A stretch of 64,000 nucleotides of DNA, from contig NC_092674.1 in NCBI RefSeq assembly GCF_964355755.1, forward strand, positions 14,632,001-14,696,000. Reading direction: 5' to 3'. Position numbers and translations under genes: made by a program. Below the pieces are notes generated by a model, which ran no database searches, was not told the origin of the DNA, and was given only the letters and a program-made list of their open reading frames with translations. Shown here in pieces: positions 19,401-43,554 of this stretch (position 1 is the stretch's first letter; every line of letters starts with the position of its first letter). The DNA is from Antedon mediterranea (Eukaryota; Animalia; Echinodermata).

Positions 19401-22400
19401 TACTCTAGTAGCTAGATCAACTTTCGTATGCACTTTGAGGTCCAGAGAATTTGACTTCAGAAATTGGTTTAGGGTGGTCAAACAATCATTTTTGGCTTGG
19501 TTACACATTTTGAAAATGTGGCGAAAGGTCAAAAGGTCAGGGTGAAAGGTCATAAAACAAAACACCAATATGTCCTTAAATCTCAACAACCACTGGTCAC
19601 AGCGAAGTAATTTTGGTCTCAAATTGATCAGAAGGTATACATTTATATTCAGTCTAATGGGACATTTTAGTCAAAAATGACCGGAAATGCCATTTCTGAC
19701 CTTTGACCCACACCTCAGGGCATGTATGTATCTCCGTAACTACTGATCGTAGACACTTAAATTTGGTCTTAAATTGTTTGAAATAAATATTTATTATTTG
19801 TAGCACATTTTTAAAAATGTTACAAAAGGTCAAAGGGTCAAGGTCAAAGGTTATATGAACAAATAAAAATAGATACTTGTATCTCGGCAACCACTCGTCG
19901 CAGCAAGTCAATTTTAGTCTCAAAATGTTCAGAAGGCATGCTTTCATATTCAATCTAATGGGACATTTTAGTCAAAAATTATCAGAAATGCCATTTCTGA
20001 CCTTTGACCCACATATCATGGCATCTTCATATCTCTGTAAGTACTGGTCGTAGAAACTTAAATTTGGTATAAAATTGTTCGAAGTATACATATTTACATT
20101 CATTGTAATAGAAAATGTGGTTAAAAGATGAACAGAAATACTATTACTAATGTTTCTAACAAAAAACATATCTCTACATAACTTATCCTTAGACAGTAAT
20201 GTTATGCAATAACTGATACTTTAAATTGTTTCAATTTCAAGTACTAGTTATTGCTGTCCCCAAGAACATTTTGATAGAAACGTCAAGCTCAACAGTTCTT
20301 TTCAGAATGCTAGAAGTAACTTGCCATGTGTATCCGATTAAACTCCCCGGGCATTTATTGTTCAAAGGGGTTTTTAGGGGCAGGGGAGGCATCTTTATTT
20401 GTGGTATAATATGGTAATATGTATAATCAAATAAATACCACCTAGATGTAAACAAAAATACAGCACAATTAATATCAAAAAGTGAAAAAAATGCTTGGTA
20501 AATTGTAGATTATGGTAGTTAATGTAATGTGTTGTGATACAATTATTGTGTAAATGCATGTGGCGGGTGTATTCCACATGGTGTTCTATTAGAGGGAATG
20601 GTGGCGTTTATTTGAGAGAGGCTTTTATTCAAAGCGGGTGTTAATTCGAATAAATACTCTAATTTTAATAATTATAATTCGTTTCTCAACTGATAAAAGG
20701 TACTTTACATGATTCGTTTTCTTCTTTATGCTTTTTAACGAAATGTTTCTGTCTTTTAGAATAAAAGTGACACTGTCATAGATAACATTAAATGGATCTT
20801 CTCTTCCAGGTGCCAGTATAATGATATAAAACAATGACATATCATTATCCTGACACAATTGCACTCATAATGGATCTTCATTCTATCATCTGTTTGTTTG
20901 TGACTACAATTTGACAACAATCTTTTGCATATTTTTAAATGCCAATACATAGCTTCATTACTATTGTACAATATGTCCAGCTTTCCTGAAAACACCCTTG
21001 TGTACTGTAGTACAGTGTTGTAGTATGATTTTATCTGATGCTTTTATTGTCAATGAATTCAGTACCTAAAACATGTCAATAGTGGTATTGATAATAAATC
21101 TCCAGAAACATATATTGTTTTATTATCTACACTGGGAACAGACGTGTATAATATACACCGACAAAACTTATACATATTATGTATAAGTTTTGTCGGTAAC
21201 ATTCAAAAATATTATGCAACAGTGTTACGGAATAATGACAATGAATTGGTCTATTAGTTGTCTGTGATACCTTTTATTACATGATTGTACTTGCAACAGG
21301 ATAGAATGAGGTTTATTCCAGTTATTATTCTTATTATATTAATTTTTTTTTTATCTGGGGTGTATTTATTTGATTATACATGTTACCATTATTACACCCA
21401 AACAAAATAAACGCCTTCCCTGAATAACTAAATGCCCGGACCTTTTATTCGGGTAACTATAGTAAGTTACTTCTAGCATTCTTAACTGTTGAGCTCGAGT
21501 ATTTATTCGAATTAACACCCGCTTTGAATAAAAGCCTCCATTCCCTCCAATAGAACATCATGTGGAATGCCACATGCATTTACAAAATAATTGTATCACA
21601 ACACATTTCATTAATTACCATAATCTACAATTTACCAAGCATTTTGACATAATGTTATTTTTTTATATTAATTGTGCTGTATTTTTTTACATCTAGGTGG
21701 TATTTATTTGATTATACATGTTACCATATTATACCCCAAATAAAGATGCCTCCCCTCCCCCTAAAAACCCTTTTGAACAATAAATGCCCGGGGCGTTTAA
21801 TCGGATACACATGGCAAGTTACTTTTAGCATTCTGAAAAGAACTGTTGAGCTTGACGTTTATATCAAAATGTTCTCGTGGACAGCAATAACTAGTAGGCC
21901 TACTTGAAATTGAAACAATTTAAAGTATCATATTGCATAACATTACTGTCTAAGGATAAGTTGTGTAGAGACATGTTTTTTGTTTGAAACATTGGTAATA
22001 GTATTTTCTGTTCATCTTTTAACCACATTTTCTATTACAATGAATGTAAATATGTATATTTCGAACAATTTGATACCAAATTTAAGTTTCTACGACCAGT
22101 ACTTACAGAGATATGAAAATGCCCTGGTATGTGGGTCAAAGGTCAGAAATGGCATTTCTGATTATTTTTTACTAAAATGCCCCATTAGACGGAATATAAA
22201 TGCATGCCTTCTGAACATTTTGAGACCAAAATTGACTTGCTGCGACCAGTGGTTGCCGAGATACAAGTACCTTTATTTATTTGTTTATATAACCCTTGAC
22301 CCTGACCCTTTGACCTTTTGTAACATTTTTCAAAATGTTTTTCAAATAACAAAATATATATTTCGAACAATTTAAAACCAAATTCAAGTGTCTACGACCA

Positions 22401-23745: not shown

Positions 23746-24700
23746 TTTGCAACTAGATGCCAACCACCTTCAACAAATATATTACAATATTCACATCATT
23801 TTGATAAAATTGAAGTTAAAATTGAATTTCTCGCCGTCACAATTCCAGAAGCAAATACGTTTGATCATCATAATAGTAACGAAATGAACATGTTCATCCA
23901 CGTCTATTGTGTATTGTATTCAGTGATCAACTATGAGGCGCTACCGATGCTTTTATTTGGTCAAATAAATTCTAGCCACATCAAAACCCACGCAATTTAC
24001 TCTGCCTGGTGCAATAATCGGTTCCGGTAAATTTTTAGACGTAAATGATATTTTGGAGTAGATGATGACTTTTTTACCAAGTGGTCCCAGGGTATAAGAT
24101 GGCCTGAAGAACGATGTTTATTTTGTAATCAACGATAATGTGAATGTGTGGCAACGTTTGACAGGAAAGACGTCCGTGTATCGAGATGATTGTGGGGCAT
24201 GAAACAGTAAAACAGCATCATACTACACGCCATATACTGTATCATAGATTCCAGAGGCTGTTTGTCTTATGTGGATCTTAAAATGGATTATATTGTAAAA
24301 CTTTTAAACTAAAACGAATACCGCTCAAACCGCAACCACTTGAAGAGGAAATAATTGTTTTCCGTAGGCTATACTATGTGACATTAAAAGCAGACAAAGA
24401 GTACAAAAAGAGATTTTATAACGACAACGGAGGAAACAGATGAAAATAGCACTGTGCCACCGCCGAGAGATTTAAAGCATGTGAAGAATGCAAAGTTCAT
24501 GTAATTGTAAGGCATCAAATCAAACCCATCAATTTACCACAGAAAAAATATCGCATATGACATCCTTGTACTTTTTTATGCATATGATACCAAATTCATT
24601 AGGGACATATTCTACAATGGCAAAGAAAAACCGGCATCAGTCGTTTTATATTTTGATTAACAGATATCTGACATTTCAAAGTTTTGCAATCCATCTTCAA

Positions 24701-24948
24701 AACATCCTAGTGTGTTGGGTATTGATGGTATGTTTAACCTTGGAGCCTGTTTTGTGACTACAACAGTCACCACACCAACATTTACAGGAAAACAACAAAT
24801 TTGCATCCTATTATGCTTGGCCCAGTGTTTTTACACTGGGATGGACTTTTCGAGACCTATCAACGATTTTTAACGCATCTGCAGAACATCCTAGTGTGTT
24901 GGGTATTGATCGTACATTTAACATTGGAGGCTGTTTTGTGACTACAAC
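24701..24948 (+). repeat. ~184-bp tandem duplication whose second unit is split by the P element and resumes at 37634-~37760
   Basis: AACATCCTAGTGTGTTGGGTATTGAT occurs at 24701 and 24885. Unit 1 keeps the uninterrupted GTGACTACAACAGTC. Confidence 0.9.
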
Positions 24949-26119
24949 CATGGAGTAAAGAATAAGAGGAGACACAACTCAGCCTAGCTATCCAGTTAAT
25001 CCAATTAGTATCACGCTGTGCGGTAGTGCTTAAGCATAGGGTAATAAACTTCCCATAACGATCCTTTGAAGAACATCCTGTTTACCCGTGCAGCTCGCTG
25101 CAGAGTCGGCTCTGATTACGTAACGCCCTAATTAAGGAAGAAGCCAGGCATGACATCGGTGACAAGAAAAGTAAACAGAGGCTGCGCAGTAGTTTCTAAT
25201 ACATCACAGTGAAGCATGACCTTTGTGCAGTTGTTCATTGTTCTTTGAGCTTTTTTCTCGAAAAAACCGTTTAAAAATCGAGTAATTTTTCACGGAGATA
25301 TCGCAGTTTTTATACCAGCTAACAAATTAATCATATTTTTTATCAAGCCATAGACGTATCATTTGGTAAGTAGAAATTTTACCGTTTAAACAACTTTTTA
25401 ATTTACGAACCCTAGTTCATTTTGTAGCATATAAAAGACTCTAACTTATTTTAAAATCATATTTTAGTGCGCGCAAATGCGCGCATGAAAAAAATTATAT
25501 AATTTAAGCTCATGAATATTCAAAAATACACGTATAGTAGAATTCCAACGACACAATTTCTTATTTTTATTACTATATTTGACATTTAATTTATGTTTCA
25601 GTCTATATTATGACTGTTTAGTTCTTTTATTTTAGTCTGATATTGTATAATTAAATTATTTATGATATTAATATTATAAAATATATGGTTTTTACGATCA
25701 GAAACTTAGAGTTCAGTGAAATTGTAGGACTAAATTATCTATCGTTTAACGATGTGTGGACAGGCCTACTACACAGTAGGCCTATATTTTCGTAATATAT
25801 TATTATTTAATAAATGGCATGGCCTAAATAAGGATAACAAATATTTAATAATATAATGATGGACATATTTAGTGCATACCTTAACCGGTAGGCCTATCAA
25901 TAGGTTAATGCATAGGCGCGCCTATAGTAATAAAAAACAATATCAATAATAGTAGCAATACGTTTTTTATTAATATATTAATAATTGTAATAACGTTAGA
26001 AATAGTATTAGTAGTAATATTTTATTAAAGAAGAAATTAATCAATTGGTTTTAGTTTTCGGATAGTCGTTATTATGAAATATGGTATAAAATATTACGAG
26101 AATATTCGTTTAGTATCAA

Positions 26120-26145
26120 CAGGGAGTAAAAATCGTTACTCCATT
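26120..26145. other. Probable P-type excision footprint (fused TIR ends between 7-bp direct repeats)
   Basis: GTATCAA|CAGGGAGTAAAAATCGTTACTCCATT|GTATCAA. Each end matches the CATGGAGTAA TIR start at 9/10 positions. Confidence 0.65.
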
Positions 26146-26263
26146 GTATCAACCCGTAACAACAACTACAAATTACATGTGTTGGTTAAAATTCAATTAC
26201 AAATATAGTCTATGCTCTTTTGTAATTATAAGCCATTGTTTAAAATGATTATGTACAGTTCGG

Positions 26264-27097
26264 GGATTAGGCCAAGTTGAGCCGCCGACAAGTTGAGCCG
26301 CCGCCAGAAAAACGTTATTTTCTATGAAACGCCAAATGCTTACTTTCGCCGGTGCTCGTTTCTATTTAATAGAAGTTCTATTTATATTAATTATTAGATA
26401 TAATAACGATGTATATTCCAAAGTTTATATATCACGGTTTTTAGTATATATTATTAAATATTATAATTAAAGAGAAATAATTATGAATATCTGACTTGTT
26501 TGTAGATTCCAAAATATAAGGCCTAAAACATGACCGAAAGTGATCGTTTTTAGCCAAAAATGACGTAAACATGTTTCCCCCTTAGGCGGCAGTTGTATGA
26601 ACTAGGCCTACTCCATTTTTCGGTAAAATAATTGCATAAAATCACCGTTTTTTAGTGAAATATTCTGTGTATTAACATTGTAAAATTCAATCAAATATGA
26701 TATTAAAAGATAGTAGATAAAAAATAATAATTATTTAACCTCATTCGAAGAGTATCAATACTCTATTACTTATTAGTCCTGAGAGACAACGTGATTTTAC
26801 GCGAGAAAAATATTATGGAGTGCACTGCATTTTTACCTTGAAAGATTAAAAACAATTAAATTATTAAATATGACTACTTTCCTTTGCTGTGTTGTTATGG
26901 CGGTTCAAACCAACAAAATTGTAGTATGTAATTATTATTTATTTTCATGACACAATAAACCTAAAGACCATGAACTTATGTACTAGGAAACCCCTCTATC
27001 ACTACGCGAAATGTCGTAAAAGACGCACTGGGCGTTTCATAGAAATTACCGGCGGCTCAACTTGTCGGCGGCCCAACCGGTCATATCCCGTTTTCCC
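26264..27097. mobile_element. MITE nested in the left arm of the P element
   Basis: Inverted subterminal GCCGCCGACAAGTTGAGCCGCC motifs at both ends and a flanking direct repeat CAGTTCGG (26256-26263 and 27098-27105). The exact ends and TSD length (5-8 bp) are ambiguous. Confidence 0.7.
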
Positions 27098-27293
27098 CAG
27101 TTCGGTACATCGCGGTTAGTAAAACAATCTGCATTAGATAAAGGTCTTTGTGCTATTCCGCCTGTTTAGGCCTAAATAAATATTAGAAGTAGGCCTATTT
27201 TGTTAACTTAAGAAAATAGAATTTAGATTTATAATAATTTATTATTTATAGGCCTCTACTCATTACTGTTTTTATGTCGTTATTTCAGTTTAA

Positions 27294-30200
27294 ATGAACG
27301 AATTACATCAATTGAATCTGGCAAATATTTGCCGGCTATGTCAATGTAACGGTACGACTGAGGAACATCGAAATCGTTCACTACCTTTCAAAAAGGAGAA
27401 ATACAGTGAACTTATCACAAAATGGCTGAATATTGATGTTAGCAACGATGATGAAAGTGTACACCCTCCTTGTATATGCTCAAAATGTGAACGGAAATTG
27501 CGAAGTTGGCGTGATAGGGCAAAGAAAAAGATGCACGTAACAGTTTCAATTGAGGTTAAGCCGTTTATTGCACATTCGTCTTCTGATTGCTTAATTTGTG
27601 GTCCTGCTGCATTAAACCGCGATGTTCTGGAGATTGAATCCATAAAACGAGGCTACATTGTAGTAAAGGAAGAAAAACGCCTAATTTTAATTGAATTTGA
27701 TTCAGCCATTTTACAAAATAAGCGATGCGTTTCTATTCAAAGCAACGGTAACTGGGAAATTGTTATACGAGGTAAAAAAATAGATCATAAAAACTGCGCC
27801 TTTCTTTCAGATATACCAGAAGTTTTGGAAACCGAAAACATTAGCACTTTTCTAGATCTCATATCTATGCCTTTATGTGGTGGTAACCTGATTCCAGCCC
27901 CTTTGAAAATGAAAACTTCTTTTAAGGGTACAAATGGGAAAGAAATTGCCTATGTTGAAGATGACATTATCAGGCATGTTAAGTGCGAGGTTTTTGTAGC
28001 AACCGGTCGCCAATGTAAAGTTTGTCGCGTGTATGGAGTAAATGTTAGAGCGATGACGGCGTATGCACGCAAGAGAACGAAAAACTTCTTAAAAACCGAA
28101 TCATCGTCACATGTGACGTTTTCCGTTCTTTCCGAAGAAGAAAAGAAAAAAAGATTACAGAACATGAAGAAAGATAAAAAACGTCTCACAGCAAGGAACA
28201 AGACACTAACAAATGAAATCGCAGAAATGCTAAACAAGGAATCTGTGAAGTTAAACGACAAACAAAACGATGCATTTTGCACTATTCTAGATGAGTCTAA
28301 ATGTTCGTTGAACTTTCCTGACGGATCTCCAGAAAAACTACTTTTTGAAGAACAACTGCAGGCAGTAGCGTTACGAAACAAGAAAGGAATAAGATGGCAC
28401 CCAGCTATAATGCGCTTATGCATGGCCCTACACACCAAATCTCCTGCCGCTTACCAATTTTTAAAGGAGTCTGGGATGCTTGTGTTACCACACATAAACA
28501 CTATCAGCAGGTACAAGCACTTTACAGATGCTGTAGCTGGTATAAATCCCGATATTTTAAAGCACGTGGCAACAGAGATGAAGATTCATTCTCAAAAGGA
28601 TTATGAAAAGAATGTTGTTATTGCTATTGATGAAATGAACATCAAGAGCGGGATGGTTTATAATCACAAAACCGGAAAAATCGACGGTATGACAGAACTG
28701 GGAGCACTGAATGAAGAACTCAAAACGTTCCGAATGTCAGTAGAAGGACGAAACCAAAGTGAATGCGCAACGCATGTCCTAGTAATCATGGTGATGGGCA
28801 TCTTTACGAGTCACCGATTACCCATTGCATATTACCCATGTCGAGCAATGACAGGGGACCAACTATTTCCAATTATCTGGAATATTGTTGAAGCTCTAGA
28901 ATTCTTAAGCTTAAAAGTCCGTGCAGTTATTGCAGACGGAGCGTCCACCAACAGAAAATTTTTCAAAATACATAGCACTGACGACGACCGACTGCAATAC
29001 AAGACTGTCAACCTGTATGCACGCGATAGAGATATATATTTCTTCTCGGATGTCCCGCACCTTATAAAGACAACACGAAACAATTGGGAGAAGTCTTGGT
29101 CCAGCAGAACTTCAAGAAAACTAATGGTAAGTTATACGTTACCGTATCCAAACCGATAAATCTTAATCGGTTAAATAAATTATTTTTTGTAAAACAAATA
29201 ATAATAATCTTCTTTTGTCCACAGAACAAAGGAAAACCAATCAAATGGTCGCATCTGGTAAAAATCTACGAACATGATATAGGTCTTGAACAGAAATCTC
29301 CTGGACTAAGAATTTTACATAAACTAAAGAACGAGCATATCTACTTGACACCATCATTGCGGATGCGAGTGTACCTTGCTGCACAGGTATTGAGATCAAA
29401 AGCTATGTTAATGAACCTATATGTCACAACCGACCCTACTATCCTGATTTGACATTTAATACTTTTTAACACGTTTTCTCACAGGTACTTAGTAGCACTG
29501 TTGCTAACGCTTTAGAGCTACTTGGTGATGACGAGCTTTCCTCAACGGTACAATTTGTTAGGATGTTCAATCGTTTTTTCGATTGCTTGAACGTTAAGAA
29601 TTCTTACGAGGGTAGGAATAAAAGAAATCCAGACCTTAACCCATACCGCAGCTCCAATGACGAACGCTTTACGGTAGGTCCTCGTCATAATGTCTAGATT
29701 TTTATTCAAATAAAACAAAGTGCAGTTATATTTGCTCATTATTGTATTATAGTAGGTACTGTAAATTTATTTCATGTTATAAAAGAAATGGCTTTTCAAA
29801 TATGTACGGTAATCATGAATGATAAGCCAGCCTACCTACATTCAGACATTTATTTGATAATTTTATATTCTCAGTGGCTGACAGACGTGTTTTTGAAATA
29901 CATCGACGACTGGGAAAATCAGCCTACAGTGGGAACGGGAAACGCAAAACGCTGCTTAAGCGAACAAACACTTACTGGCTTACGGATAACAGGTATGAAC
30001 AATTATAATTAAGTTCGTGACCCGTTAACAGCCTGAATTGTGTCATCAACAACATATATTTTTATATATATGTACAAATAAAAATATTTAAATTAATTTT
30101 CTTTTTAATTCTGACAGTTGTTATATATGCATGTTGTAACGACGCCTTTGGCGTGCCATAATTGTTCTCTCTCTTCTGAATAAATGTTCAGTTGTACACG

Positions 30201-33200
30201 CTGTGTTTAGAGCCCTTACTTTGCATTATAATTTATTATATACAACATAAATTTTGGCGACGAGGATGAGCATGGCAGTTATAATAGGAAAGGTGGAAGA
30301 ATTTGATTCATCTTTAGAAGCTTGGGATTCGTATACCGAACGGTTAGATCAATATTTTGTAGCCAACAAGGTCGATGATGATCGGAAGGTACCGGCATTG
30401 CTTGCACTCATCGGACCGAAAACGTACACGCTACTAAAGAATTTGTGTTCACCGGAGAAACCAGCGACACTGTCTTACGCAGATTTAATTACAAAGCTCA
30501 CGACACATCTTTGCCCAAAGCCATCGGAAATCGCTGAACGATTTCGGTTCTACAAAAGAGAACAGCATAGCGGGGAAAGCATTGCTTCATACATTGCTGA
30601 ACTACGAAGGTTAGCCATTCATTGCAATTTCGGAAACACTTTGACCTCGACACTGCGAGACATTTTCGTCTGCGGGTTGCGTCAAGAGAACATTCAGAAA
30701 CGTTTACTGGCGGTTCATGACCTTAAATTAGATGATGCAATTAAAACCGCTGTAGCTATGGAAACAGCAAGTCGTGATGCTACAGAATTTCAGAAAACAA
30801 GGACACCAAATACTACAGGTGAGAGCAATGTAAATAAGTTTACTACAAAAAATTACCAATCTAAAAGACACCAAGGTCATAAACAAAGTAAAGCATCTAC
30901 ACACTGTTACAGATGTGGTAATACAGGCCATAAAGCTGATCGCTGCAGGCACATACATACTGTTTGCAATTACTGTTCCAAGGAAGGACATCTAGAAAAA
31001 GTATGCATGAAGAAAAAGAAAGACAATAATGTGTCAAAGCCTAACACTGGTAACCTTAAAAAGAATGTACAGTATGTACAGGGAGAGGAAGTCAACTATG
31101 AACCTATGCTATATGCAAATCATAAGTCAAAAGTGGAGCCAATTATAGTGGTTGCATCTATAAATGGAAAGAAAATCCCTATGGAATTGGACACTGGATC
31201 ATCAGTATCACTGATTCCAGAGTTGACCTACAAGAAAGCATTCCAGTCGTTACCATTACAGAAAACTACAATTAGGTTGAAAACATATTCTGGTGAGACT
31301 ATTGTACCAATAGGCATGCTAAATGCTAAAGTGTGTCTTAACAATCATGAAGAAATTGCAGAGTTATTGGTCGTTCCATTGAACGGACCAGCCTTATTCG
31401 GACGTGATTGGCTAAAGAAGTTTAAATTAGATTGGCATGAAATAAAAGCCATTGATGAGGCAAAAGCAACAACTAAAGGTCTGGATGAAATTTTAGAAAA
31501 ACATAAAGCTGTTTTTAAAGATGAATTGGGGAAACTGGAGAATATTAAAGCTAGTATCTACATCACTGAAAACAGCAAACCACAGTTCCACAAGCCAAGA
31601 AATGTCCCATATTCAATGAGGGACAAGGTCGAAAAAGAGCTTGGACGACTACAAAATCAAGAGATTATTAGCCCTGTGAAATACAGCGAATGGGCAGCTC
31701 CCATTGTACCTGTACAGAAGAAGTCAGGGCAAGTTAGAATCTGTGGTGACTTTAAAGTTACAATTAATCCTGTGATGAAAGTAGAACAGTACCCATTACC
31801 TAAAATAGAAGATATCTTTGCATCTCTAGCAGGAGGTCAGAAATTTACAAAAATTGACCTTAAACAAGCATATTTACAGATGGAAGTGGAAGACACTTCA
31901 AAGGAACTGTTAACTATTAATACGCATAAAGGGTTATTTAGATATAACCGACTTCCATTTGGTGTAGCCTCAGCTCCTGCAATCTGGCAAAGAGCGATGG
32001 ACCAGGTACTGCAAAATGTACCCTTTACATCTTGCATATTGGATGATATGATCATCAGCGGAAAAACAACTGAGGAACACTTAAAAAACTTGGACACAGT
32101 TTTAGAGAGATTAGAGAAATACAACTTAAGAGTAAATCGTGAGAAATGTGAGTTTTTCAAAGAGGACATCACATACTGTGGTCATGTGATAACTGAAAAA
32201 GGGTTACAGAAATCCCCTGACAAGATACATGCAGTTATCAATGCGCCAAAACCTGACAACAAACAGCAAATGCGATCATTCTTGGGTTTAATAAATTACT
32301 ATCGTAGGTTTTTGCCAAACTTATCGTCCATAGTCGCACCCCTGAATGAACTCTTACAAAATGAAAAAACTTGGAAATGGACAAATTCATGTGATGAAGC
32401 TTTTAAAGCGGTCAAAGAACTTATAACTTCAGACCAAGTTCTATGCCACTATAATCCTGAACTAACAGTTAAACTAGCCTGTGATGCATCGCCATACGGC
32501 CTTGGTAGCGTTCTTTCACATATTATGCCAGACGGAAAGGAAAGACCAATTGCATTTGCTTCTCGCTCCTTAACAAAAGCTGAAAAGGGCTATGCCCAAA
32601 TAGATAAGGAAGCATTAGGACTTTATTGGGGAATACAAAAGTTTCATACTTACCTGCATGGCCGACATTTTACTTTGGTTACAGATCATAAGCCGCTAGT
32701 AAGCATCTTGCATCCACAAAAGTCAATTCCATCAATGACTGCTGCAAGACTACAAAGATATGCCCTTTACCTATCTGGACATACATATGATATCGAATAT
32801 CGCAACACGCACGCTCATGGGAATGCTGATGGATTGAGTAGATTGCCTATACCTACAGATGTGATTGATTACGTCGATGAGGCATCTACATTCTACACCT
32901 CCCAGATTGAAAGGTTGCCGATATCAAGTACAGAAATACGGAAAGAAACACAGAAAGATCAGATTCTGTCACACGTATTAGATACTGTTTTAAAAGGGAC
33001 TAACAAACTTCCTGACAAAGAAGCGTACACACCCTACAAGCGCCGTCTTACAGAACTTACTTGCCATCAAGGGTGTTTAATGTGGGGAAATCGAGTACTA
33101 ATTCCAGATAGACTTCGTGCTGCTATTCTTAATGAAATACATGATGGACACATTGGGATTGTTAAGATGAAAAACTTAGCTCGCTCTTACATCTGGTGGC

Positions 33201-34832
33201 CTAACATTGATTGCGAAATTGAACAAGTTTGTAAATCTTGTATCGGTTGCCAGCAAACAAGCAAAATGCCAAAATCCGCACCAGTACACCCTTGGGAGTG
33301 GCCATCTGCCCCATGGGATCGCTTACATATAGATTTTGCAGGGCCATTCATGAACTCTATGTTTTTAATTGTTGTTGACGCCCATAGCAAATGGCCAGAA
33401 GTTTATCCAATGAGATCTACTACAGCACAACTGACTATTGAGAAATTGCGAATTATGTTTAGCCAATATGGTATTCCCAGACAAATTGTATCGGACAACG
33501 GTCCTCAATTTAAGTCGGAGGAATTTACAGATTTCATGAAAGCAAATGGTATTCGACATACCACATCATCCCCATATCACCCCAGAACAAATGGCCTAGC
33601 AGAGAGATTTGTGCAAACGTTTAAATTGGCCATTAAGCAAGCAAGAGGAAACAGTTGTTGTTCATTACAGCAACATCTGAGTACATTTCTGTTTAAGTAC
33701 AGAACAACTCCTCATACACTTACCAAGGAAACACCTGCAAAATTACTCTACGGACGCAATCTACGAACGCGTTTGGATCTTTTGAAACCGGATCTAACAG
33801 CTACTGTCTTGAAAGGTCAAGATCGTATGAAGTTTGCAAAACATTGTGGAACCAGTATCCGAGAGTTTCAACCCGGACAATCAGTAATGGTCCGTGATTA
33901 TCGTAACACAAACCAGAAATGGATACCAGCTCAAATACAAGGAAAAACTGGTCCACTATCTTACACAGTTGACACAGGACTTGGAACAGTATGGAGGCGT
34001 CATGCTGATCAACTACACCCAACTATGGTGAATGTCACTCCTACAGAAATATTCACCCAGGATGACCATGTTCCAGAAATACTAAATCCAACAGACGCTC
34101 CACAATCAGATAACCTTACTCGAAATGTTAACGCCGACACACCTGTTACAACTGGCAGCGCATCTCTTACACAAGAAACTGCACCCATACGTCGATATCC
34201 AAAAAGAAATAATATTCGCCCACCAAAGAGACTAGACTTGTAAATAGACATGAAACAAGAAGTTGATTTTAGTTGAACTTTATTATTCATTATTGCATTG
34301 AAAGATATTATACAGAAAACTTTGATTGAAACATTATAATTACGAATGATTACAGAACAGTACAGAACTCTAGAATCTAGTCTTTACTATTCTTAAAATG
34401 GTAGGGAGGATGTGTTATATATGCATGTTGTAACGACGCCTTTGGCGTGCCATAATTGTTCTCTCTCTTCTGAATAAATGTTCAGTTGTACACGCTGTGT
34501 TTAGAGCCCTTACTTTGCATTATAATTTATTATATACAACAACAGTGAAATCGTTTGTTGAGCTCACTAAGTTGTTGCTTGAAATACCGGGAGTAGAATT
34601 TATTTTGAGTCGTAAGTTCAACCAGGATCCGTTAGAACAGTATTTTTCTAAACAACGCAGTGCTGGAGGGCAAAATACAAATCCAGATATCACCCAGTTC
34701 TCCAACAATTATTTAATTTTACATGCTACTGGACGTTGCATCAAAGCTGCAAAAAGAGGAAATACAAGAAGAGAGGGTGAATCAGTCTCTAACTTGCTTG
34801 ATGGAACACCTTTGGCCAAGAAAAAGAAGTAA
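27294..34832 (+). CDS. P-element/THAP9-family DDE transposase with a RAG1-like N-terminal zinc domain, join(27294..29126,29225..29386,29485..29673,29875..29992,34546..34832), 862 aa
   Basis: All introns are GT-AG with consistent phases (0,0,0,1). Motifs include RWHP..SPAAYQFL..LP, IAIDEM, VIADGASTNR, FSDVPHLIKTTRN, MRVYLAAQV, FFDCLN and NQDPLEQYFSKQR. An in-frame TAA lies immediately before the ATG. The last intron contains a Gypsy element. Confidence 0.92.
30119..34541 (+). mobile_element. Intact young Ty3/Gypsy (Mag-like) LTR retrotransposon
   Basis: Identical 129-bp TG..CA LTRs (30119-30247 and 34413-34541), 5-bp TSD ACAGT, PBS TGGCGACGAGGATG (tRNA-Ser-like) and a purine tract before the 3' LTR. 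Confidence 0.97.
30266..34243 (+). CDS. Gypsy gag-pol polyprotein (gag with two CCHC knuckles, protease, RT, RNase H, integrase)
   Basis: Single uninterrupted ORF with LDTGS, ILDD, DAS..EAL..TDHKPL, HHCC, and IDFAG/VSDNGPQF/NGLAERFV. First ATG at 30266. Confidence 0.96.
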   Translation: MSMAVIIGKVEEFDSSLEAWDSYTERLDQYFVANKVDDDRKVPALLALIGPKTYTLLKNLCSPEKPATLSYADLITKLTTHLCPKPSEIAERFRFYKREQHSGESIASYIAELRRLAIHCNFGNTLTSTLRDIFVCGLRQENIQKRLLAVHDLKLDDAIKTAVAMETASRDATEFQKTRTPNTTGESNVNKFTTKNYQSKRHQGHKQSKASTHCYRCGNTGHKADRCRHIHTVCNYCSKEGHLEKVCMKKKKDNNVSKPNTGNLKKNVQYVQGEEVNYEPMLYANHKSKVEPIIVVASINGKKIPMELDTGSSVSLIPELTYKKAFQSLPLQKTTIRLKTYSGETIVPIGMLNAKVCLNNHEEIAELLVVPLNGPALFGRDWLKKFKLDWHEIKAIDEAKATTKGLDEILEKHKAVFKDELGKLENIKASIYITENSKPQFHKPRNVPYSMRDKVEKELGRLQNQEIISPVKYSEWAAPIVPVQKKSGQVRICGDFKVTINPVMKVEQYPLPKIEDIFASLAGGQKFTKIDLKQAYLQMEVEDTSKELLTINTHKGLFRYNRLPFGVASAPAIWQRAMDQVLQNVPFTSCILDDMIISGKTTEEHLKNLDTVLERLEKYNLRVNREKCEFFKEDITYCGHVITEKGLQKSPDKIHAVINAPKPDNKQQMRSFLGLINYYRRFLPNLSSIVAPLNELLQNEKTWKWTNSCDEAFKAVKELITSDQVLCHYNPELTVKLACDASPYGLGSVLSHIMPDGKERPIAFASRSLTKAEKGYAQIDKEALGLYWGIQKFHTYLHGRHFTLVTDHKPLVSILHPQKSIPSMTAARLQRYALYLSGHTYDIEYRNTHAHGNADGLSRLPIPTDVIDYVDEASTFYTSQIERLPISSTEIRKETQKDQILSHVLDTVLKGTNKLPDKEAYTPYKRRLTELTCHQGCLMWGNRVLIPDRLRAAILNEIHDGHIGIVKMKNLARSYIWWPNIDCEIEQVCKSCIGCQQTSKMPKSAPVHPWEWPSAPWDRLHIDFAGPFMNSMFLIVVDAHSKWPEVYPMRSTTAQLTIEKLRIMFSQYGIPRQIVSDNGPQFKSEEFTDFMKANGIRHTTSSPYHPRTNGLAERFVQTFKLAIKQARGNSCCSLQQHLSTFLFKYRTTPHTLTKETPAKLLYGRNLRTRLDLLKPDLTATVLKGQDRMKFAKHCGTSIREFQPGQSVMVRDYRNTNQKWIPAQIQGKTGPLSYTVDTGLGTVWRRHADQLHPTMVNVTPTEIFTQDDHVPEILNPTDAPQSDNLTRNVNADTPVTTGSASLTQETAPIRRYPKRNNIRPPKRLDL

Positions 34833-35033
34833 AGTAAGACTAATAACATCGTACTTATTTTATTAAACTGGTAAATAAAAAAAAACATCATCATCATAGC
34901 CTAATATTAAAATATATAAAAAAACATGAAAACATTTTATCGCCAAGGAAAAACCAAATATACATTGGCTAATTTATGTCATGCTATATTCAATTGTTAT
35001 TAGTATGATGTAAAATCATTGTGCGTATTAATT

Positions 35034-36756
35034 TCATTTCTTTGTATTTGTCTTTTTAGGTAGTCTTTTTCTAAGAGGCTTTTCTGACTTATTTGTTTTT
35101 GTTTCTTCTTTTTTTCTTAGTATCAACATGTTTACTCGGACAAACGCAGTACAACGGATTTTAACAAAGTATTTTATCACCGTCGTCAGGAAGTGTGTAC
35201 TGGGTGCACCGTGGAGCTTTCCGTCGACAAGTGCGCACCACAACTGTTGTATCATAGCGTCGTTAATAACAATATTTATTATCTCGTCACTCATGCTTAA
35301 TGATTTGAATGTTAATATTTTCGAAACATGTAGTACTCGTCTAGTCAAAACTTCTACCCTCCTAAAGAAGATATAAACATTATGGTTGACTTTAAACAGT
35401 CCCCCTCTACTTTGCTTGTCAATCCATTTTTTTGAATACGTATAGAAGTTATCGCCGTCAGGTTCAACTCCTTCCTTCGGTTTCCCTTCCTTCCACGATG
35501 AGAGCATATGGCAGAGAGAAGAGGCTTTAGTGCCTTTAAACCGTTTAATCAACGCGAATGGAATGTAGCCAGCAACATACCGTATAACTTGTTCGTCTTT
35601 GGAAGTCAGTAGATCTTCATCCTGGTTATCCGTTTCTGTCGGTTTCTCGACTCGGTTCCGTTCAGCCACAATATTGGCGTACATTGTCCTCATCACATAA
35701 CTGTAAAGTATATCTGATACTCTACATTTTCTGCCACATAATGTTTTCCAATGTTGAAAAATGTCTTCATCCTTAGATATAAGTGAATTCAATTCCCTGA
35801 ACATGCATTCATTAGCTTCTGGTCCTAAAAATGTATTGTCACCGCTGGTAACCACAGTCCACAACTTTCTTGTTGTTTTCCGAGCGAATTCTGTAAATGT
35901 TGACATATTACCTGTTAAGATCTGTGCCGCTATTTCTTGCGCTATTTCGGCGTTAGGAAACGAGCCACTGAACATCGGATGCGATTTGATTGACAATACA
36001 GACGTTCGTAAATTTTCGTTGGCAAACTCCAATGCCTCGTCCCCGCTATACACGTTTTCGGGGCGTTTCATTTTACCTAAATAAATGTAAATACAAATAA
36101 ATTATAGGCTTCACAAAACATTAGTGGAAATCGGCATGCTTAAACTTATATCCCACTTATGTTTTCCCACCCCATTTATTATGCTAGACGTTTTTAGCCA
36201 TTAAAATTAATCTTAAATACACTTTTTTTTTTAAATTTTTGATATATTTGTTGTCGTTTTATTAGTTGTAGTAGTAGTAGTTGTATGACTGATTTCATTT
36301 ACACGTAAAATAAAAGGCAATCCAAATAAAATATATAAGCCTAATTAATAGTTTTATATCAACATTTGAAGAGTTTTGTATATGTCTGCTAAACAGAATA
36401 TTGTAGTTGAATTCATTACTTTTTTACAATCATAAAAGCTTACCTTTCTTTAGTTTTTGGGTGTGCAAATTATCTGTAGAAATGGCGGATTCGGTGCAAA
36501 CGTAACATTTCCATTGGCCCTTCGGTAGAGAGTCTTGTGTTACTCCAACGCAACGAAAATGGTACCATTTCAAACATTTGGGATTTTCGCACCCTATCAT
36601 TTCTGCATCATCTTTTTCTTTACAAACACAATTAAACTCGTCTGTCACATCTTCGTCACCGGAATTAAAGCTTAAATCTTCTAATTCAAAATCTAAATCG
36701 GAAAAGTCGGACTCGTAGTAAAAGTCGTCTTGTGCAGTTTTCTTAGGACGCGTCAT
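35034..36756 (-). CDS. Transposon-encoded protein with an acidic region, a PHD finger and a P-transposase-CTD-like domain, complement(join(35034..36076,36444..36756)), 451 aa
   Basis: Exon 1 has a D/E-rich stretch and CVC..MIGCENPKC..WYHFRCVG..PKGQWKCYVC (PHD). A phase-1 intron GTAAGC..TTTAG joins it in frame to the 345-aa ORF containing VIRYVAGYI and WIDKQSRGGLFKV..FFRRVE. Confidence 0.88.
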
Positions 36757-39600
36757 TTTGATGAATGTTGGATTGAACTGATTGCAGTATACTATATACT
36801 AGGCCTACCTGCATTATTTATAACATCTTGGACGCATATAAACTGTATTTGACACCTTAGCGCTTACAGACAATTAGATATAAATTGTTATTATAGAGAA
36901 CAAAAGCTATAGACTATACACCATTTCAGCCTTTACGATCATGAATACGGTACTTTACATTGCATTGCAATATAAACAAGACCGTATTTATAAGTATTTT
37001 TTTATTTTTGAAAACATATAAAATACAACCAAGATTAGGATTAATCTACAACGATCGTACTCTAATATTTAGGCCTAAATTTATCCTCGTAGGCTTAGGC
37101 CCTAAAAACCATGGAGTAAAAAATTATTTTTATTATTTGGTCAAGGAAAAAATACGTCTTTATGAAACTCATTAATCCATCATTATAATAAGTTGTCTGG
37201 AGAGAAATTACCAACATTAATACACAGTAAAACCGTATAAATATAATTCCTTAATAGGTGCCGCATAAAACTCGTATTATTTATTTGTTAATAAAAAGTT
37301 ATCCAGTAGAATGGCGCTGCTTTTTTATAAAATAAACAAGATCGGAATATAAGTTCAGTACACCATCACACAGTATAGCACACCTTTCACGCTTGAACGC
37401 ACATCGCCTAGCAAGAGTATTGTGACGTCCTAACACGACCTAATACGCATGTGTACTTTACACCAAAATTGACCGCGGGCAGTAAACATTGTAATCTTTG
37501 CTAATTGGGTTACGTAACGGCAGTGTTTAGTACCTATTAAATAGTCATTACAAGCATAGCCTTAAGGAAGCGGTAAACACGATGAACTGACTGAACTATT
37601 CAAGTTGTGTCTCCTCTTATTCTTTACTCCATGCTACAACAGTCTATCACCACATCAACATTTACAGGAAAACAACAAATTTGCATCCTATTATGCTTGG
37701 TTCAGTGTTTTTACACTGGATGGACTTTTCGAGACCTACCAACGATGTTTATTGCATCTGCCATGTAAATTACATGGAACTGGAATAGGTGGGTCACAAG
37801 TCATGGGAAACAACTTAATATTTGGTTCAAACAAATGTCGATGTTACTATTAAAGGAAAGAATCATTAAAGAAAATCCTGATTTCTTAGAATACTACTGA
37901 AAATTGGCCACAAATTTGTTAAAATACATAGGCCTACACTATTTTGGTACACAAATCAATTAATACATGGCTGCCGTTTGATTCAAACAACAATTCTTGC
38001 AAGAGCATTATTGTGGGAGGGCGGTATTTACTTGAACTATATTATGCCGCAGATGTATTTTTGGTGTTATACTATATAAGGTTACATGTACAAGTTTTCA
38101 GCGTAGTTCACCGGCGATAGAAGCTAGAGTAAGAGAAGGGTTTGAGACGTTGAAATATATTGTAGATAAATGAAAGAATATGAGTAATCCTCAGATCTCA
38201 TCTCAGTCCCCGTTAACCCCGTACAAGAACCAACAAAAACAAACTATCTGTTTGAAACATTTATTCTGGGACGGTGCGGCCACACGCCAATTACCATTAA
38301 CCCTATGCACATTCATCGTATAAATAACAAACCAACAAAAATAATTACAATCTTTGTTTCAGATGCCAAGGCATGTAAGCAAAATTAAAATTAAATAGTT
38401 TCTTTTTAAATTTAAATACCGTTCTGTTGAACGAACCAACAATATATGTATTAAAATTAAATATCTTAAGTGACTTTTGTTAAATCAATTATTATATCTG
38501 TGAAAACTTGTTACAGTACATGTTAACGTATAATTTAAAGAGCCGAAAGAAAACGTATGCTAACCATAACATCTTTCTAAATCACTCTTAACCTTGGGAT
38601 AGGCGAAAAACAAGAAAAATATCTGAAAATTCCTATCCGGCCCTGTGGTGGCGACCGAGTGCACCTATGTTGAATAACATTGATAAACTCTAAGGTTGAG
38701 AGCGACTGAAAATAATACATTAACATATTACAGTACCATGCGGTACCGTGCATGAAACGGGCATTTCGCTACCAATGTGGCAACCTATACTAATGTGACG
38801 GTCACACTAATCTACAGTAAGCCTGGACCACCGGTAGTGTTTTCATGATAACTACATGCCAACATCATGTTAAATGTTGTTTGGATATTTAATTGTTCGT
38901 TTCATGCAATTTATTTAGTAAAAAACTGCTAAATAAACAGTTCGTTTCATCAACCGGGCACTACCGGTCGTGTTGTTGTTTACGCGTTTTCACAAATGAT
39001 ATACGGTAATAATATTTCTATATTTAACTTGTTTCTAGTAAAAAAATAAATATTAATTCAATTTAACATTGTATTCTATTAATAACATGTATTTTATACT
39101 AATTTATATCATAAAAACACTACTTAATTTACCGGGCGTAGATTAGTACGTGTTATATGATGGCACCATATATTATGATGTCGCCCTCTATAGTATGTAG
39201 GATACCCATAAGGCAACAGAGCTCTAAAACATGGCTTCAGTATAGAAGACCTCACGAATGATTGTGATAACAATGATGTCGAATAACTAAAGAATAAAAG
39301 CATTGTGTTACTAGAAACGTCTCTCATGTATTAAAGAATATTACATGGTGGCAACGGTAGGATTGAAACATATAATAAAGTCAATCGATAAGCTATACTA
39401 GGCTAGAAGAATAAATAGGCTAGCGTACACGCCGCCGCACGAATAGAATAGTAAAACGTGTTGTTGAGAGTACACACGTGACGTGCGGAGAGAACTGAAT
39501 TGGATTTTGTATTCGGATAGCAGAAGGCAAAAAATAGCCCATACACATTTTGTTACCACTGTATACAACAACTGACAATATTAAAAAATTAATATTGATC

Positions 39601-42600
39601 ATGGCGAACCTAAATCAGCCAGAACCATTAAATATATCGACAGGCAACATATCGGAGAATTGGAAGAGATTCAAACAGAGATTTGAACTATATAACATTG
39701 CCAGTGGAATGTCACGAAAACCAAGTGAAACGCAAACGTCATTACTGGAGCTGTGGCTTGGTGGTTATGATGCTTGGCTACCAATCTAAGGGTCCTGGGT
39801 TCAAGTCCTGTCATATGTCAGGGTTTTTTTCTCATGACAATTTACAACTCCACTCCCAAAGACTTAATAATAAGTCTTTGTCTATGTAGAGCATCTTGTG
39901 TATATGTTTGTCTTATATGTTCTAGTGCAGTATATGGAGAGCCATCTCGATAGTGCTTTGCACTCATGGCAATCCTCAGGGTGCTGCACCGCTGTGTTGT
40001 CATGTATGTTTGCCTGAAAATTAAATAAAATAAAATAAAAAATAAAATAAATAAAATACTACTCCATACTATTGGGCAACAAGGCTTAGATGTATATAAC
40101 GCATTTAAATTTGAAAATGAAGCTAAGAAGATGAGATTAAACACAGTTATGCACAAATTTGAGGAATATTGCAACCCCAAGAAAAACATTACATTTGAAC
40201 GACACACTTTCTTTTCACGAAACCAGATACCAGGTGAGAAGATAGACCAATATGTGACCGACCTAAAGAACAAGAGCAAGACATGTGAGTTTGGAGAAAT
40301 TGAGGAATCCCTCATCAGGGATAGAATTGTTTGTGGACTATTGGACAATCAATTGCGTGAACGATTGCTTAGAGAAGATGATTTAAATTTAGATAAGTGC
40401 ATGAAAATATGTAAGGCATCAGAAGCGTCGAGAAACTTAGGGAAAGAGCTCAAAACTGATCACCAAGTAGCGGTAGATCAATTAGGTATGTCTAATAATT
40501 ATAAACATGATAGAACCAAAGATAGAGATAAAAGTAAACCATGCTCAAGATGCACTAGATCACATGAATATGGTAAATGTCCAGCTTTTGGCATGTCCTG
40601 CAATAATTGTGGTAGGAAAAATCATTTTAGTAGAGCATGTAGGTCAAAACGTAATGACAAACAAAAGGGAAAATATATAAATGCACCTAACAGAAGTAAG
40701 AGAAACGTGCATGGTATAAACAAAAGCAATGATAGCGATTGCGACAGTGAAGATGAATCTAATATTACATTTGAAGCAATTAAAATAAGCCAGATAAACG
40801 CTAAAGATGGTGACACAGAAGTGTTCACAAATGTCAAAATTGAAATAAACCGTAACAAACCAACTTTTCTGAAAGTAAAAGTAGATACAGGTGCAGAGGG
40901 TAATATATTACCACTGAGAATGTATAGAGCTATGTTTCCTAAAAACATGAGCAATAATGTACCTAATGATAGATATGTTAACAAATCTAATGTAAAAGTC
41001 ACAGCGTATAACGGAGCACAAATCAAACATTATGGTTACATACACATCCCATGTTACTTCAATAACTTACACACAAATGCAAAGTTTTATATTGCAGAGG
41101 TACAGGGACCAGCTATAATGGGACTACCGACGCTAAAGACTCTGAAGATAATACAGATAAACTGTGCAGTCGAAGTAAATGACAAAATCAAGGATGTAGA
41201 GGACATAAAAAGACTCTATCCAGACAGATTTGAAGGCATTGGCAAGTTTGAGGGTACGTACAAAATAGTTATAGACGAAACGGTACCACCTGTCATACAC
41301 GCACCAAGGTCATGTCCATTAGCGATAAAAAATGACATAAAGGCTGAGTTGGATGAAATGATGAGATTAAATGTCATACAGAAAGTAGAGAAACCAGTGG
41401 ATTGGGTTTCAAGTTTGGCCTACTCACAGAAACCAAATGGGAGATGGCGGATATGTTTAGATCCTAAGGACTTAAACAAAGCTATAAAACGCACATACCA
41501 TCACACACCAACCCTAGATGAGATAACACATAAATTTAGTGGGGCAAAGTTTTTCTCTAAACTAGATGCACGACATGGATATTGGTCCATAAGACTTGAC
41601 AAAGAATCCAGTTATCTTACCACATTTAACACTCCAGGGTTTGGAAGATTCAGATTCCTAAGATTACCATTTGGACTGAATGTCAGCCAAGACGTTTTTC
41701 AACATAAGATGGATCAAATATTGGAGAAATGCATCGGAGCCACAGGCATCGCAGATGACGTTGCTGTATTTGGGAAAACAGAAGAAGAACATGATCGAAA
41801 CTTAATGGACCTGATGGAAACCGCTAGAGAATATGGGCTTGTATTCAATGCAGAGAAATGTGAAATAAAGCGACCGCAAATAAATTTCTTTGGTATGATA
41901 TATGATAAAGATGGAGTACATGCTGACCCAAAGCGCATTGAAGCCATCAGCAAAATAAAACCACCAACGAATGTTAAAGAGTTACAAAGTTTCCTAGGCA
42001 TCGCCACGTATATGAGTCCCTTCTGTCCCAAGCTGTCAGACAAAACAGCACCCCTCCGAGAACTTCTGAAAAAAGATAATGTATTTGAATGGAATGGCTC
42101 ACAACAAAAAGCATTCGAAGAGATAGTCAACAATATGTAACCAGACAACACTGACCTATTTCCAACCTAACAAAAAGTTGAAACTACAAGTGGATGCATC
42201 CCTGATTGGAGTGGGAGCAGCACTCATACAAGACGAAAAAGTTGTTGCGTTTACATCAAAGGCATTAACAGAAGCGGAACAAAGATATGCGAACATTGAA
42301 AGAGAACTACTGGCGGTAGTATACGCAGTAGAGAAGTTCCACACATATGTGTATGGAAACTCATTCATTGTGGAATCAGACCACAAACCGTTAGAGATGA
42401 TCCAACTAAAAAATCTAATGTGTGCACCACCAAGACTACAAAGACTACTAATGAGACTACAAGGATATGATCTGACAATCAAGTATAAACCAGGCAAAGA
42501 AATGGTCCTGGCAGATGCCATGTCTAGATTAAACCCTATAAATGACAGCCAAATTGAAGAAGAAGTAAAGATACAACTGTCATATTTCTCAGAGTCCAAA

Positions 42601-43116
42601 GAAGAAGAAATAAGGCAGAAGACCAAGGAAGACCCAACTCTCATAAAATTGGGAAGTATAATACAGCAAGGCTGGCCAGACAAACTAAAATCTGTACATA
42701 AGACAATAAGACCATACTTCCCATACAGGGATGAACTCACAACAGAGAACGGAATAATACTAAAGGGTAACAGAGTAGTGATCCCAGAAGTCATGAGACA
42801 GGACATCCTAAAACAACTACACACATCCCACTTAGGCATAACCAAGTGTCAACTGATGGCTAAAACATCAATCCATTGGCCCAGTATTAATGAGGAAATA
42901 GAAAACATGATAAAAGCATGCCCATCATGCCAACAACACAAACACAAACAACAACATGAACCAATGTTGAAGAGAAAAATCCCTACCAAAGAATGGGAAA
43001 TACTCGCAGCTGACCTATTCTACATAAATAGAGTAGAATACCTCCTAATAGCAGATTATTACACCAAATATCCAATCATAAGAAAAATTAAGAAACCAAA
43101 TAGATTAGATTTGTAA
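39601..43116 (+). pseudogene. Disrupted gag-pol (SINE in gag, frameshift near 42138, integrase core deleted)
   Basis: VDTGA protease, IADD RT, RNase H and HHCC are present. After ADYYTKYPIIRK the ORF jumps straight to the terminal IKKPNRLDL. Confidence 0.9.
39747..40056 (+). mobile_element. tRNA-derived SINE inserted in gag
   Basis: A-box-like TGGCTTGGTGG, B-box GGTTCAAGTCC, (TAAAA)n tail and TACT duplication. Removing it restores the gag frame TSLLLHTIGQ. Confidence 0.88.
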
Positions 43117-43554
43117 ATAAAACTTATAATTGTTTTATTATGATTGTAATATGATTGATAAATGAGACCCACAGTTTAATTATATTTGTACACCATTATG
43201 AGTAATTAAAGAAGAGGGATGTTATATGATGGCACCATATATTATGATGTCGCCCTCTATAGTATGTAGGATACCCATAAGGCAACAGAGCTCTAAAACA
43301 TGGCTTCAGTATAAAAGACCTCACGAATGATTGTGATAACAATGATGTCGAATAACTAAAGAATAAAAGCATTGTGTTACTAGAAACGTCTCTCATGTAT
43401 TAAAGAATATTACATACGCAGCAATGGTAAAGAATAGGCTATGCTAAGTAAACGCTTAGTTGTTTTTGTTGTTGCTGTTCGGCCTTTCTTTTTTAACATG
43501 GTGGTAATAATTTTCTGTAGAAGTGACTTACCTTTAGTAATTCTTACCTTTAAT

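Follow-up and report, generated by a model that had tools for sequence, protein, structure and literature searches.

In the P superfamily, canonical P transposase and THAP9 carry a C-terminal domain (CTD) within the catalytic polypeptide. The locus described here raises the question of where this domain is encoded when a transposase gene ends shortly after its catalytic glutamate, and what the protein of the antisense gene facing it might do. The window (the whole stretch of 64,000 nt of Antedon mediterranea DNA that was analysed) contains a P-type transposon at 24949–37633 that carries both genes. The initial annotation had described a split transposase whose C-terminal domain, fused to a PHD finger, is encoded by another gene in antisense orientation; this observation was confirmed, the fold itself being a predicted one. 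The annotation had overlooked the terminal inverted repeats and target site duplication, the LTR element within intron 4 and the RAG1-type domain at the N terminus. The features, in window positions, are:

24942–24948, plus strand: left target site duplication (TSD), 7 bp, CTACAAC
24949–24979, plus strand: left terminal inverted repeat (TIR), 31 bp, beginning CATGG (inverted repeat, 100% complementary)
27294–29126, plus strand: gene 1 exon 1, with an N-terminal zinc domain of RAG1 type (aa 1–110), HTH and N-terminal part of RNase H (Pfam, profile match)
29225–29386, plus strand: gene 1 exon 2, encoding the GTP-binding insertion (predicted splice sites, based on homology and GT/AG signals)
29485–29673, plus strand: gene 1 exon 3 (predicted GT/AG junctions)
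29875–29992, plus strand: gene 1 exon 4 (predicted GT/AG junctions)
30119–34541, plus strand: nested Gypsy-type LTR retrotransposon, outside the two-gene system (identical 129 bp LTRs, 5 bp TSD ACAGT)
34546–34832, plus strand: gene 1 exon 5, QDPLE, with the catalytic Glu as residue 798 (PF21789)
34834–35120, plus strand: candidate 3′-UTR intron of gene 1, from 1 nt past the stop (GT..AG joint in one X1 contig)
35034–36076, minus strand: gene 2 exon 2, modelled as a helical domain of about 145 aa, followed by a P-transposase CTD fold and a basic tail
36444–36756, minus strand: gene 2 exon 1, with an acidic tract plus a PHD finger of ING type (Pfam, structural-relative search)
37603–37633, minus strand: right TIR, 31 bp (inverted repeat)
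37634–37640, plus strand: right TSD, 7 bp, CTACAAC

The ends are those of the P superfamily, which has TIRs and a 7–8 bp TSD: here a perfect 31 bp TIR and a TSD of 7 bp. A paralogous stretch resembling an empty site (24745–24780) has CTACAAC once. In the read contigs of X1, the flank beyond the right TIR differs from that of the window, and read depth at the right end is far above that of the genes, which hints at non-autonomous derivatives and does not measure copy number. The read-contig checks concern the right half of the element. The insertion site is a degraded, partly duplicated frame (PSVLGIDxxFNxGxCFVTTT, 24670–24948 and 37634–37850), which we take to resemble a MULE-type transposase. 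Within the left end, 5′ of gene 1 (26276–27077), short inverted repeats are spaced by about 750 nt and possibly belong to a nested MITE. Outside the element, imperfect long inverted repeats at 20000–22143 are foldback-like, and a second LTR retrotransposon at 39151–43415 has 196 nt direct repeats that are 99% identical and a fragmented pol frame.

The five predicted GT/AG exons of gene 1 encode 862 aa with no internal stop. IDE445, IAD546 and DVPH586 all lie in exon 1, followed by QDPLE794 in exon 5. Pfam recognised a P-type HTH and the N- and C-terminal parts of RNase H, with the GTP-binding insertion below cut-off (PF21787, E 8e-25; PF21789, E 4e-9; PF12017; PF21788, E 1.5e-4, below cut-off), and gene 1 also matched the fly P transposase chain 6p5a_A (E 1.6e-4). 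The protein has the P-superfamily core, namely a P-type RNase H with its DDE residues, a DxxH motif and a GTP-binding insertion. The closest named protein is an Antedon mediterranea model, with 92% identity over residues 80–563. The open frame was said to stop about 60 residues past the catalytic glutamate; the measured distance from the E of QDPLE to the end (KRGNT..PLAKKKK*) is 64 residues. The CTD is absent from gene 1, and no plus-strand match to a CTD profile occurs in the window. This, and the position of the sole downstream joint, which begins past the stop, ruled out an additional coding exon that would give gene 1 its own CTD. That joint marks the candidate 3′-UTR intron, the acceptor of which has 19/20 pyrimidines; the exon beyond it would be antisense to the coding end of gene 2.

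The copy of gene 1 in the window is probably disabled. A young Gypsy-type LTR element (30119–34541), with an open frame of 1330 codons, sits at the acceptor of intron 4, which is duplicated by its ACAGT TSD. The upstream acceptor copy keeps the pyrimidine tract (15/20 pyrimidines vs 10/20 for the other copy) and runs into a stop after 14 codons, so that the gene as it stands is probably inactive. In contigs of runs X2 and X3, intron 4 is joined directly to exon 5, and therefore copies free of the insertion exist.

Gene 2 is antisense to gene 1, with 201 nt between the two stop codons. Its two exons are separated by a 367 nt GT..AG intron and encode 451 aa, in which all of the motifs listed by the initial annotation were located: MIGC at 53, WYH at 64, EQVIRY at 266, YVAGY at 271, SRGGL at 327 and FFRRVE at 341. 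A family profile built from the window's own frame and its relatives was run against 2000 six-frame segments of the window, and only the gene 2 frame matched (E 5e-97; next, 0.89); since the profile singles out that frame, it is not a chance reading. Exon 2 matches 817 protein clusters at E ≤ 0.001, the best 150 of which are all ≤535 aa in length. The PHD finger is recognised by Pfam (PF00628, E 1.1e-7). The junction between it and exon 2 is predicted from GT/AG signals, from an NCBI gene model of Antedon mediterranea that is 98% identical to gene 2 residues 1–211, the junction included, and from relatives that carry a PHD finger and a CTD in one protein. In an X1 contig the intron of gene 2 is present in unspliced form, and the joints listed include none for it. 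The identity of run X1 as RNA is a guess only, and these observations have no bearing on expression. Among 17 listed differences of X1 in gene 2, 7 are synonymous and 10 non-synonymous (synonymous-site fraction 0.21); these were given no weight.

For the C-terminal half of gene 2, the predicted fold is that of the P-transposase C-terminal domain. Exon 2 was modelled without a template from 150 sequences (pLDDT 91.6) and the model was compared with 997 chains using VIA-align, and the top match was the fly CTD chain 6p5a_B (Z 12.2, rmsd 2.1 Å), with 118/118 residues aligned (model 150–318 to chain 617–734) and a runner-up at Z 5.4. With this aligner, a Z below about 13 may reflect a common arrangement in helical folds; despite this, the whole of the 6p5a_B chain is covered, at a score far above those of other chains. 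Foldseek gave an E of 1.2, a probability of 0.87 and a TM on target of 0.59, and 6p5a_B was alone above probability 0.15 among the matches listed. The TNP-CTD has been defined by three consensus motif blocks (bioRxiv 10.64898/2026.08.31.747927), all of which occur in gene 2 in the published order, as YVAGY, SRGGL and an FVKIR helix. The gene 2 model combines the helical fold with the YIAGY, RGGL and third-helix motifs that characterise a P-transposase CTD, while sequence profiles alone fall short: HMMER gave no match to the CTD chain of the fly protein, and Pfam Tnp_P_element_C was found in 1/45 family members, below its cut-off (E 0.0019). The earlier proposal that gene 2 holds a P/THAP9-type CTD is thus supported by the predicted structure and the three motifs, but the profile check gave no match to the fly chain. 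Residues near-invariant among the 150 members (Y162, G165, W213, R219, G220, L222, E237, W275 and R303) are all within the CTD fold. Model residues 1–144 form an added helical domain that had no clear fold match among the 997 chains (best Z 5.4). The basic tail is kept across the family, with a median of 32% K+R in the last 25 residues (154 proteins).

If the split were peculiar to the window, it might be an assembly artefact or a one-off rearrangement, an explanation ruled out by 21 other loci. Homologs of gene 1 extend to QDxLE in 6/24 cases, and all six stop 50–71 aa later. A wider sample was fetched by the transposase alone (80 loci, the best 80 of 218), and in 42 of these both motif and stop were visible. 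The stop lies 54–79 aa past the Glu in 38/42, and 5, 38, 40 and 106 aa past it in the others; these distances were taken from genomic frames, in some of which an intron could conceal a longer end. The gene 2 profile matches 21/80 loci, always antisense to the transposase (21/21), with 20 downstream in a tail-to-tail arrangement; at none of the 80 loci does it match in the transposase frame. The 59 loci lacking a match are mostly short contigs. Gene 2 was found at 18/27 loci with ≥1 kb downstream and at 12/16 with ≥2 kb, and was not detected at the other 9 and 4, respectively, even with a loose threshold. No fused transposase occurred among the fetched sequences; a search for fused CTD forms among proteins of 938–2675 aa likewise gave none, in a size range that misses the 600–900 aa canonical P transposases and is uninformative for them. 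No relative was found in viral contigs. Both genes lie within CATAG TIRs flanked by 7 bp TSDs at five loci (L006, L052, L062, L070 and L071), and two others (L054 and L063) have TIRs and no TSD. The split is, from these comparisons, a natural and widespread trait of the family.

Three of the loci have unusual arrangements. In L007 (4374–5294) the CTD gene is upstream and head to head with the transposase, the sole such relative. In L018 (338–5657), TIR-like CATAG ends bracket a CTD-less transposase in which gene 2 was not detected, and which may be decayed, spliced or truly one-gene; this locus is one of the four with ≥2 kb downstream and no gene 2. Two frames occupy the place of gene 2 in L005 (2531–4129), and these resemble a lambda-exonuclease-type nuclease and a Harbinger-type transposase, an ISL2EU-like pattern.

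Gene 2 is under purifying selection, judging by codon comparisons over 18 pairs. The dN/dS values are 0.10–0.18 in seven divergent pairs with computable dS (one further pair was saturated) and 0.62–0.76 in three near-identical pairs, the higher values being expected of unselected insertions. Identities of gene 1 and gene 2 correlate across 12 representatives (Mantel rho 0.69, 0/5000 shuffles), and supported clades are concordant between the two trees, the gene 2 tree having long branches and leaving the window's sequence unplaced. Long co-inheritance and selection are evident. The two genes are co-inherited because they share the same TIRs, and since shared TIRs alone give this result, it does not imply contact between the proteins.

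The N-terminal finger of gene 2 is a Cys4-His-Cys3 PHD finger nearest to the ING type; its closest solved structures are ING4, ING3, ING5, ING1 and ING2 (best E 3.5e-12). The Tyr, Met and Trp of an ING-type PHD are residues of the cage that reads H3K4me3. In the window copy the Met, the Trp and an acidic residue are retained, with an Asn aligned to the ING4 Tyr and a Phe one residue before it, and 3/8 fully matched relatives retain an aromatic residue together with M and W. The excerpted text of PMC12713335 describes the cage in general terms, giving no residue numbers. Pfam found a PHD in at least 6 and a C2H2 finger in at least 6 of 45 family members (44 of ≥360 aa and the Antedon model; shorter entries may miss an upstream exon). 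Next to gene 2 at the 21 loci, there is one PHD and five C2H2 fingers, a spurious match in L007 having been set aside, and many complete relatives of gene 2 have no finger at all. Three copies (L052, L070 and L071) are 94–99% identical and TSD-flanked, each at a site of its own, and have too little space before the TIR for a PHD, indicating mobility in the absence of a finger. As far as the sequences go, the PHD is an optional part of the family, replaced by C2H2 or by nothing in relatives.

Gene 1 also differs from canonical P transposases at its start, where Pfam and profile searches found no THAP domain. A profile of 10 sequences, made from aa 1–110 (27294–27623) and nine relatives, matches RAG1 in 21wb (E 1.8e-11) and residues 101–216 in 6oem (E 1.1e-8). 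PF12560 was found in 9/10 of these sequences, as was zf-AD, more weakly. The zinc module has the CRxC...HP..xCxxC...H...C..C arrangement of the RAG1 N-terminal/Chapa type, and it appears to be the Chapa domain described in the available portion of PMC4411706. Relatives carry either this domain or a THAP, one or the other, the THAP being upstream in L006 and L017 and weakly detected in L072. The window, L053 and L011 form one clade (95/90, long branches) in which all three have the RAG1-type domain, and the window and L053 have the PHD, that of L053 with a full cage.

Taken as two facing genes in a P-superfamily transposon, this arrangement can be read in several ways. We consider it somewhat better than an even chance that the gene 2 protein, with its predicted CTD fold, docks on the transpososome in trans and aids target capture. 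In the fly structure a disordered linker holds the CTD, which lies in the space separating RNase H from the GTP-binding domain of the other subunit and touches both end DNA and target DNA (PMC7776569, in excerpt); a linker of this kind makes it plausible that it could be cut into two genes. The C-terminal half of gene 2 would occupy that same position, flanked by the RNase H and GTP-binding domains, and its basic helix would touch transposon-end and target DNA. The added helical domain of 145 aa may provide a docking surface that replaces the lost covalent linker, and the N-terminal finger, which is exchangeable (a PHD in this element, a C2H2 or no finger in others), would bias the location of the complex on chromatin. 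The initial annotation had the domain missing from gene 1 supplied by gene 2. Its absence from gene 1 and relatives, and the co-inheritance of the genes in one TIR-bounded element, agree with this, but the necessity of such a supply does not follow: deletion of the CTD leaves excision and integration by DmTNP unchanged and raises integration by THAP9 by about 60% (bioRxiv 10.64898/2026.08.31.747927), so that supply in trans may not be needed. An absolute need for gene 2 in cutting is less likely than an accessory role in which its product tunes target capture.

The same deletion results keep alive a model in which gene 2 is a detached brake, binding the transposase or TIR DNA and reducing integration, with its own promoter tuning the activity of the element. 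Integration is inhibited by the CTD of THAP9, the fly transposase can do without its CTD, a separate gene permits separate regulation, and the X1 joint, on the guess that X1 is RNA, suggests a gene 1 transcript continuing antisense into gene 2. We nevertheless hold a brake to be unlikely, as the fly CTD was not inhibitory in the same assay (bioRxiv 10.64898/2026.08.31.747927), the basic tail is retained, and a pure repressor would easily be lost, yet gene 2 is kept at 12 of the 16 testable loci. The acidic N-terminal tracts (10 picked members have 29–53% D/E over their first 45 residues) and the PHD or C2H2 fingers, six of each among the 45 members, resemble a transcription factor and would suit a CTD descendant that is now independent of the transposase, acting on the element as a DNA- or chromatin-binding factor (anti-silencing or transcription). 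This is quite improbable given that the near-invariant residues all fall in the CTD fold and that many complete relatives are fingerless.

That the PHD was the purpose of the split, with gene 2 directing insertion towards H3K4-methylated chromatin in the way that RAG2 serves RAG1, is very improbable. The ING1–5 relationship and the retained cage residues favour it, and the ING-like nature of the finger, on which tethering to methylated H3K4 had originally been proposed, stands; but the case for such targeting is weakened because the finger is optional (a PHD at 1 of 21 gene 2 loci, C2H2 at five), PHD-less copies were mobile and the window copy has an Asn aligned to the cage tyrosine. A broader proposal, possible but doubtful, is that a P-superfamily lineage independently reached the RAG1/RAG2 design, its transposase beginning with a RAG1-type zinc domain and a second, convergent gene supplying the enzyme's own CTD in detached form. 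That subunit would serve in target capture, and its swappable reader, an ING-type PHD or a C2H2 finger, would set the preference for insertion sites.

The CTD of P/THAP9 transposases has been a puzzle, as it contacts DNA in the structure and yet is dispensable in cell assays. A lineage with the CTD as a separate, conserved gene makes this directly testable, by one plasmid added or omitted. If a swappable finger sets target choice, the element would offer a DDE transposase with a natural, modular targeting subunit. It would further parallel RAG1/RAG2 independently, down to the N-terminal zinc domain of RAG1. Full-text literature searches gave no description of two-gene P elements, including the accessible parts of PMC10824691 and PMC4455052 and a term search of 10.1101/2021.09.26.461848; Repbase Reports and subscription journals, which lay outside the search, may list such families. 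The two-gene layout is a real, widespread and new variant of the P superfamily, for the second protein of which we infer a function.

Among known systems, gene 1 is most like the Drosophila melanogaster P transposase (PDB 6P5A/6PE2) and THAP9, sharing the HTH, the split RNase H with a GTP-binding insertion, the D..D..E residues and DxxH. Perfect 31 bp TIRs are also a feature of the Drosophila P element, as are, in the model, the CTD fold and three motifs. Unlike both, the window element has its predicted CTD encoded by a separate gene on the opposite strand, together with an additional helical domain and a PHD, and its gene 1 has a RAG1-type zinc domain and no THAP. The TSD is 7 bp, compared with 8 bp in Drosophila P, a length shared with Galileo and 1360/Hoppel of the P superfamily (PMC3698922, available part), for which that part of the source mentions no second gene; these were compared by description only.

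Second proteins encoded within TIRs are also found in Kolobok Kol0 (KolX; PMC9587614, in part) and Harbinger (Myb/SANT; PMC12730594, in part), but theirs are unrelated folds and not the transposase's own detached domain. Chapaev transposases carry a RAG1-like N-terminal zinc finger, the Chapa domain, on a different catalytic family, and according to the available portion of PMC4411706 this domain was known in transposons, as of 2015, only from the Transib/Chapaev group. The element parallels RAG1/RAG2 because gene 1 opens with a RAG1-type zinc domain, homologous to RAG1 residues 101–216, instead of THAP. As in RAG1-RAG2 and RAGL/ProtoRAG (Transib), two convergent genes lie within the TIRs and the second has a PHD (PMC7204232, excerpted text). 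It is not a RAGL/Transib element, which would have a Transib-type core and a kelch RAG2L: its core is P-type, the second gene encodes a helical CTD in place of a kelch propeller (the exon 2 model being all-helical), its PHD finger is N-terminal and of the ING type, and the TSD is 7 bp compared with 5 bp for RAG.
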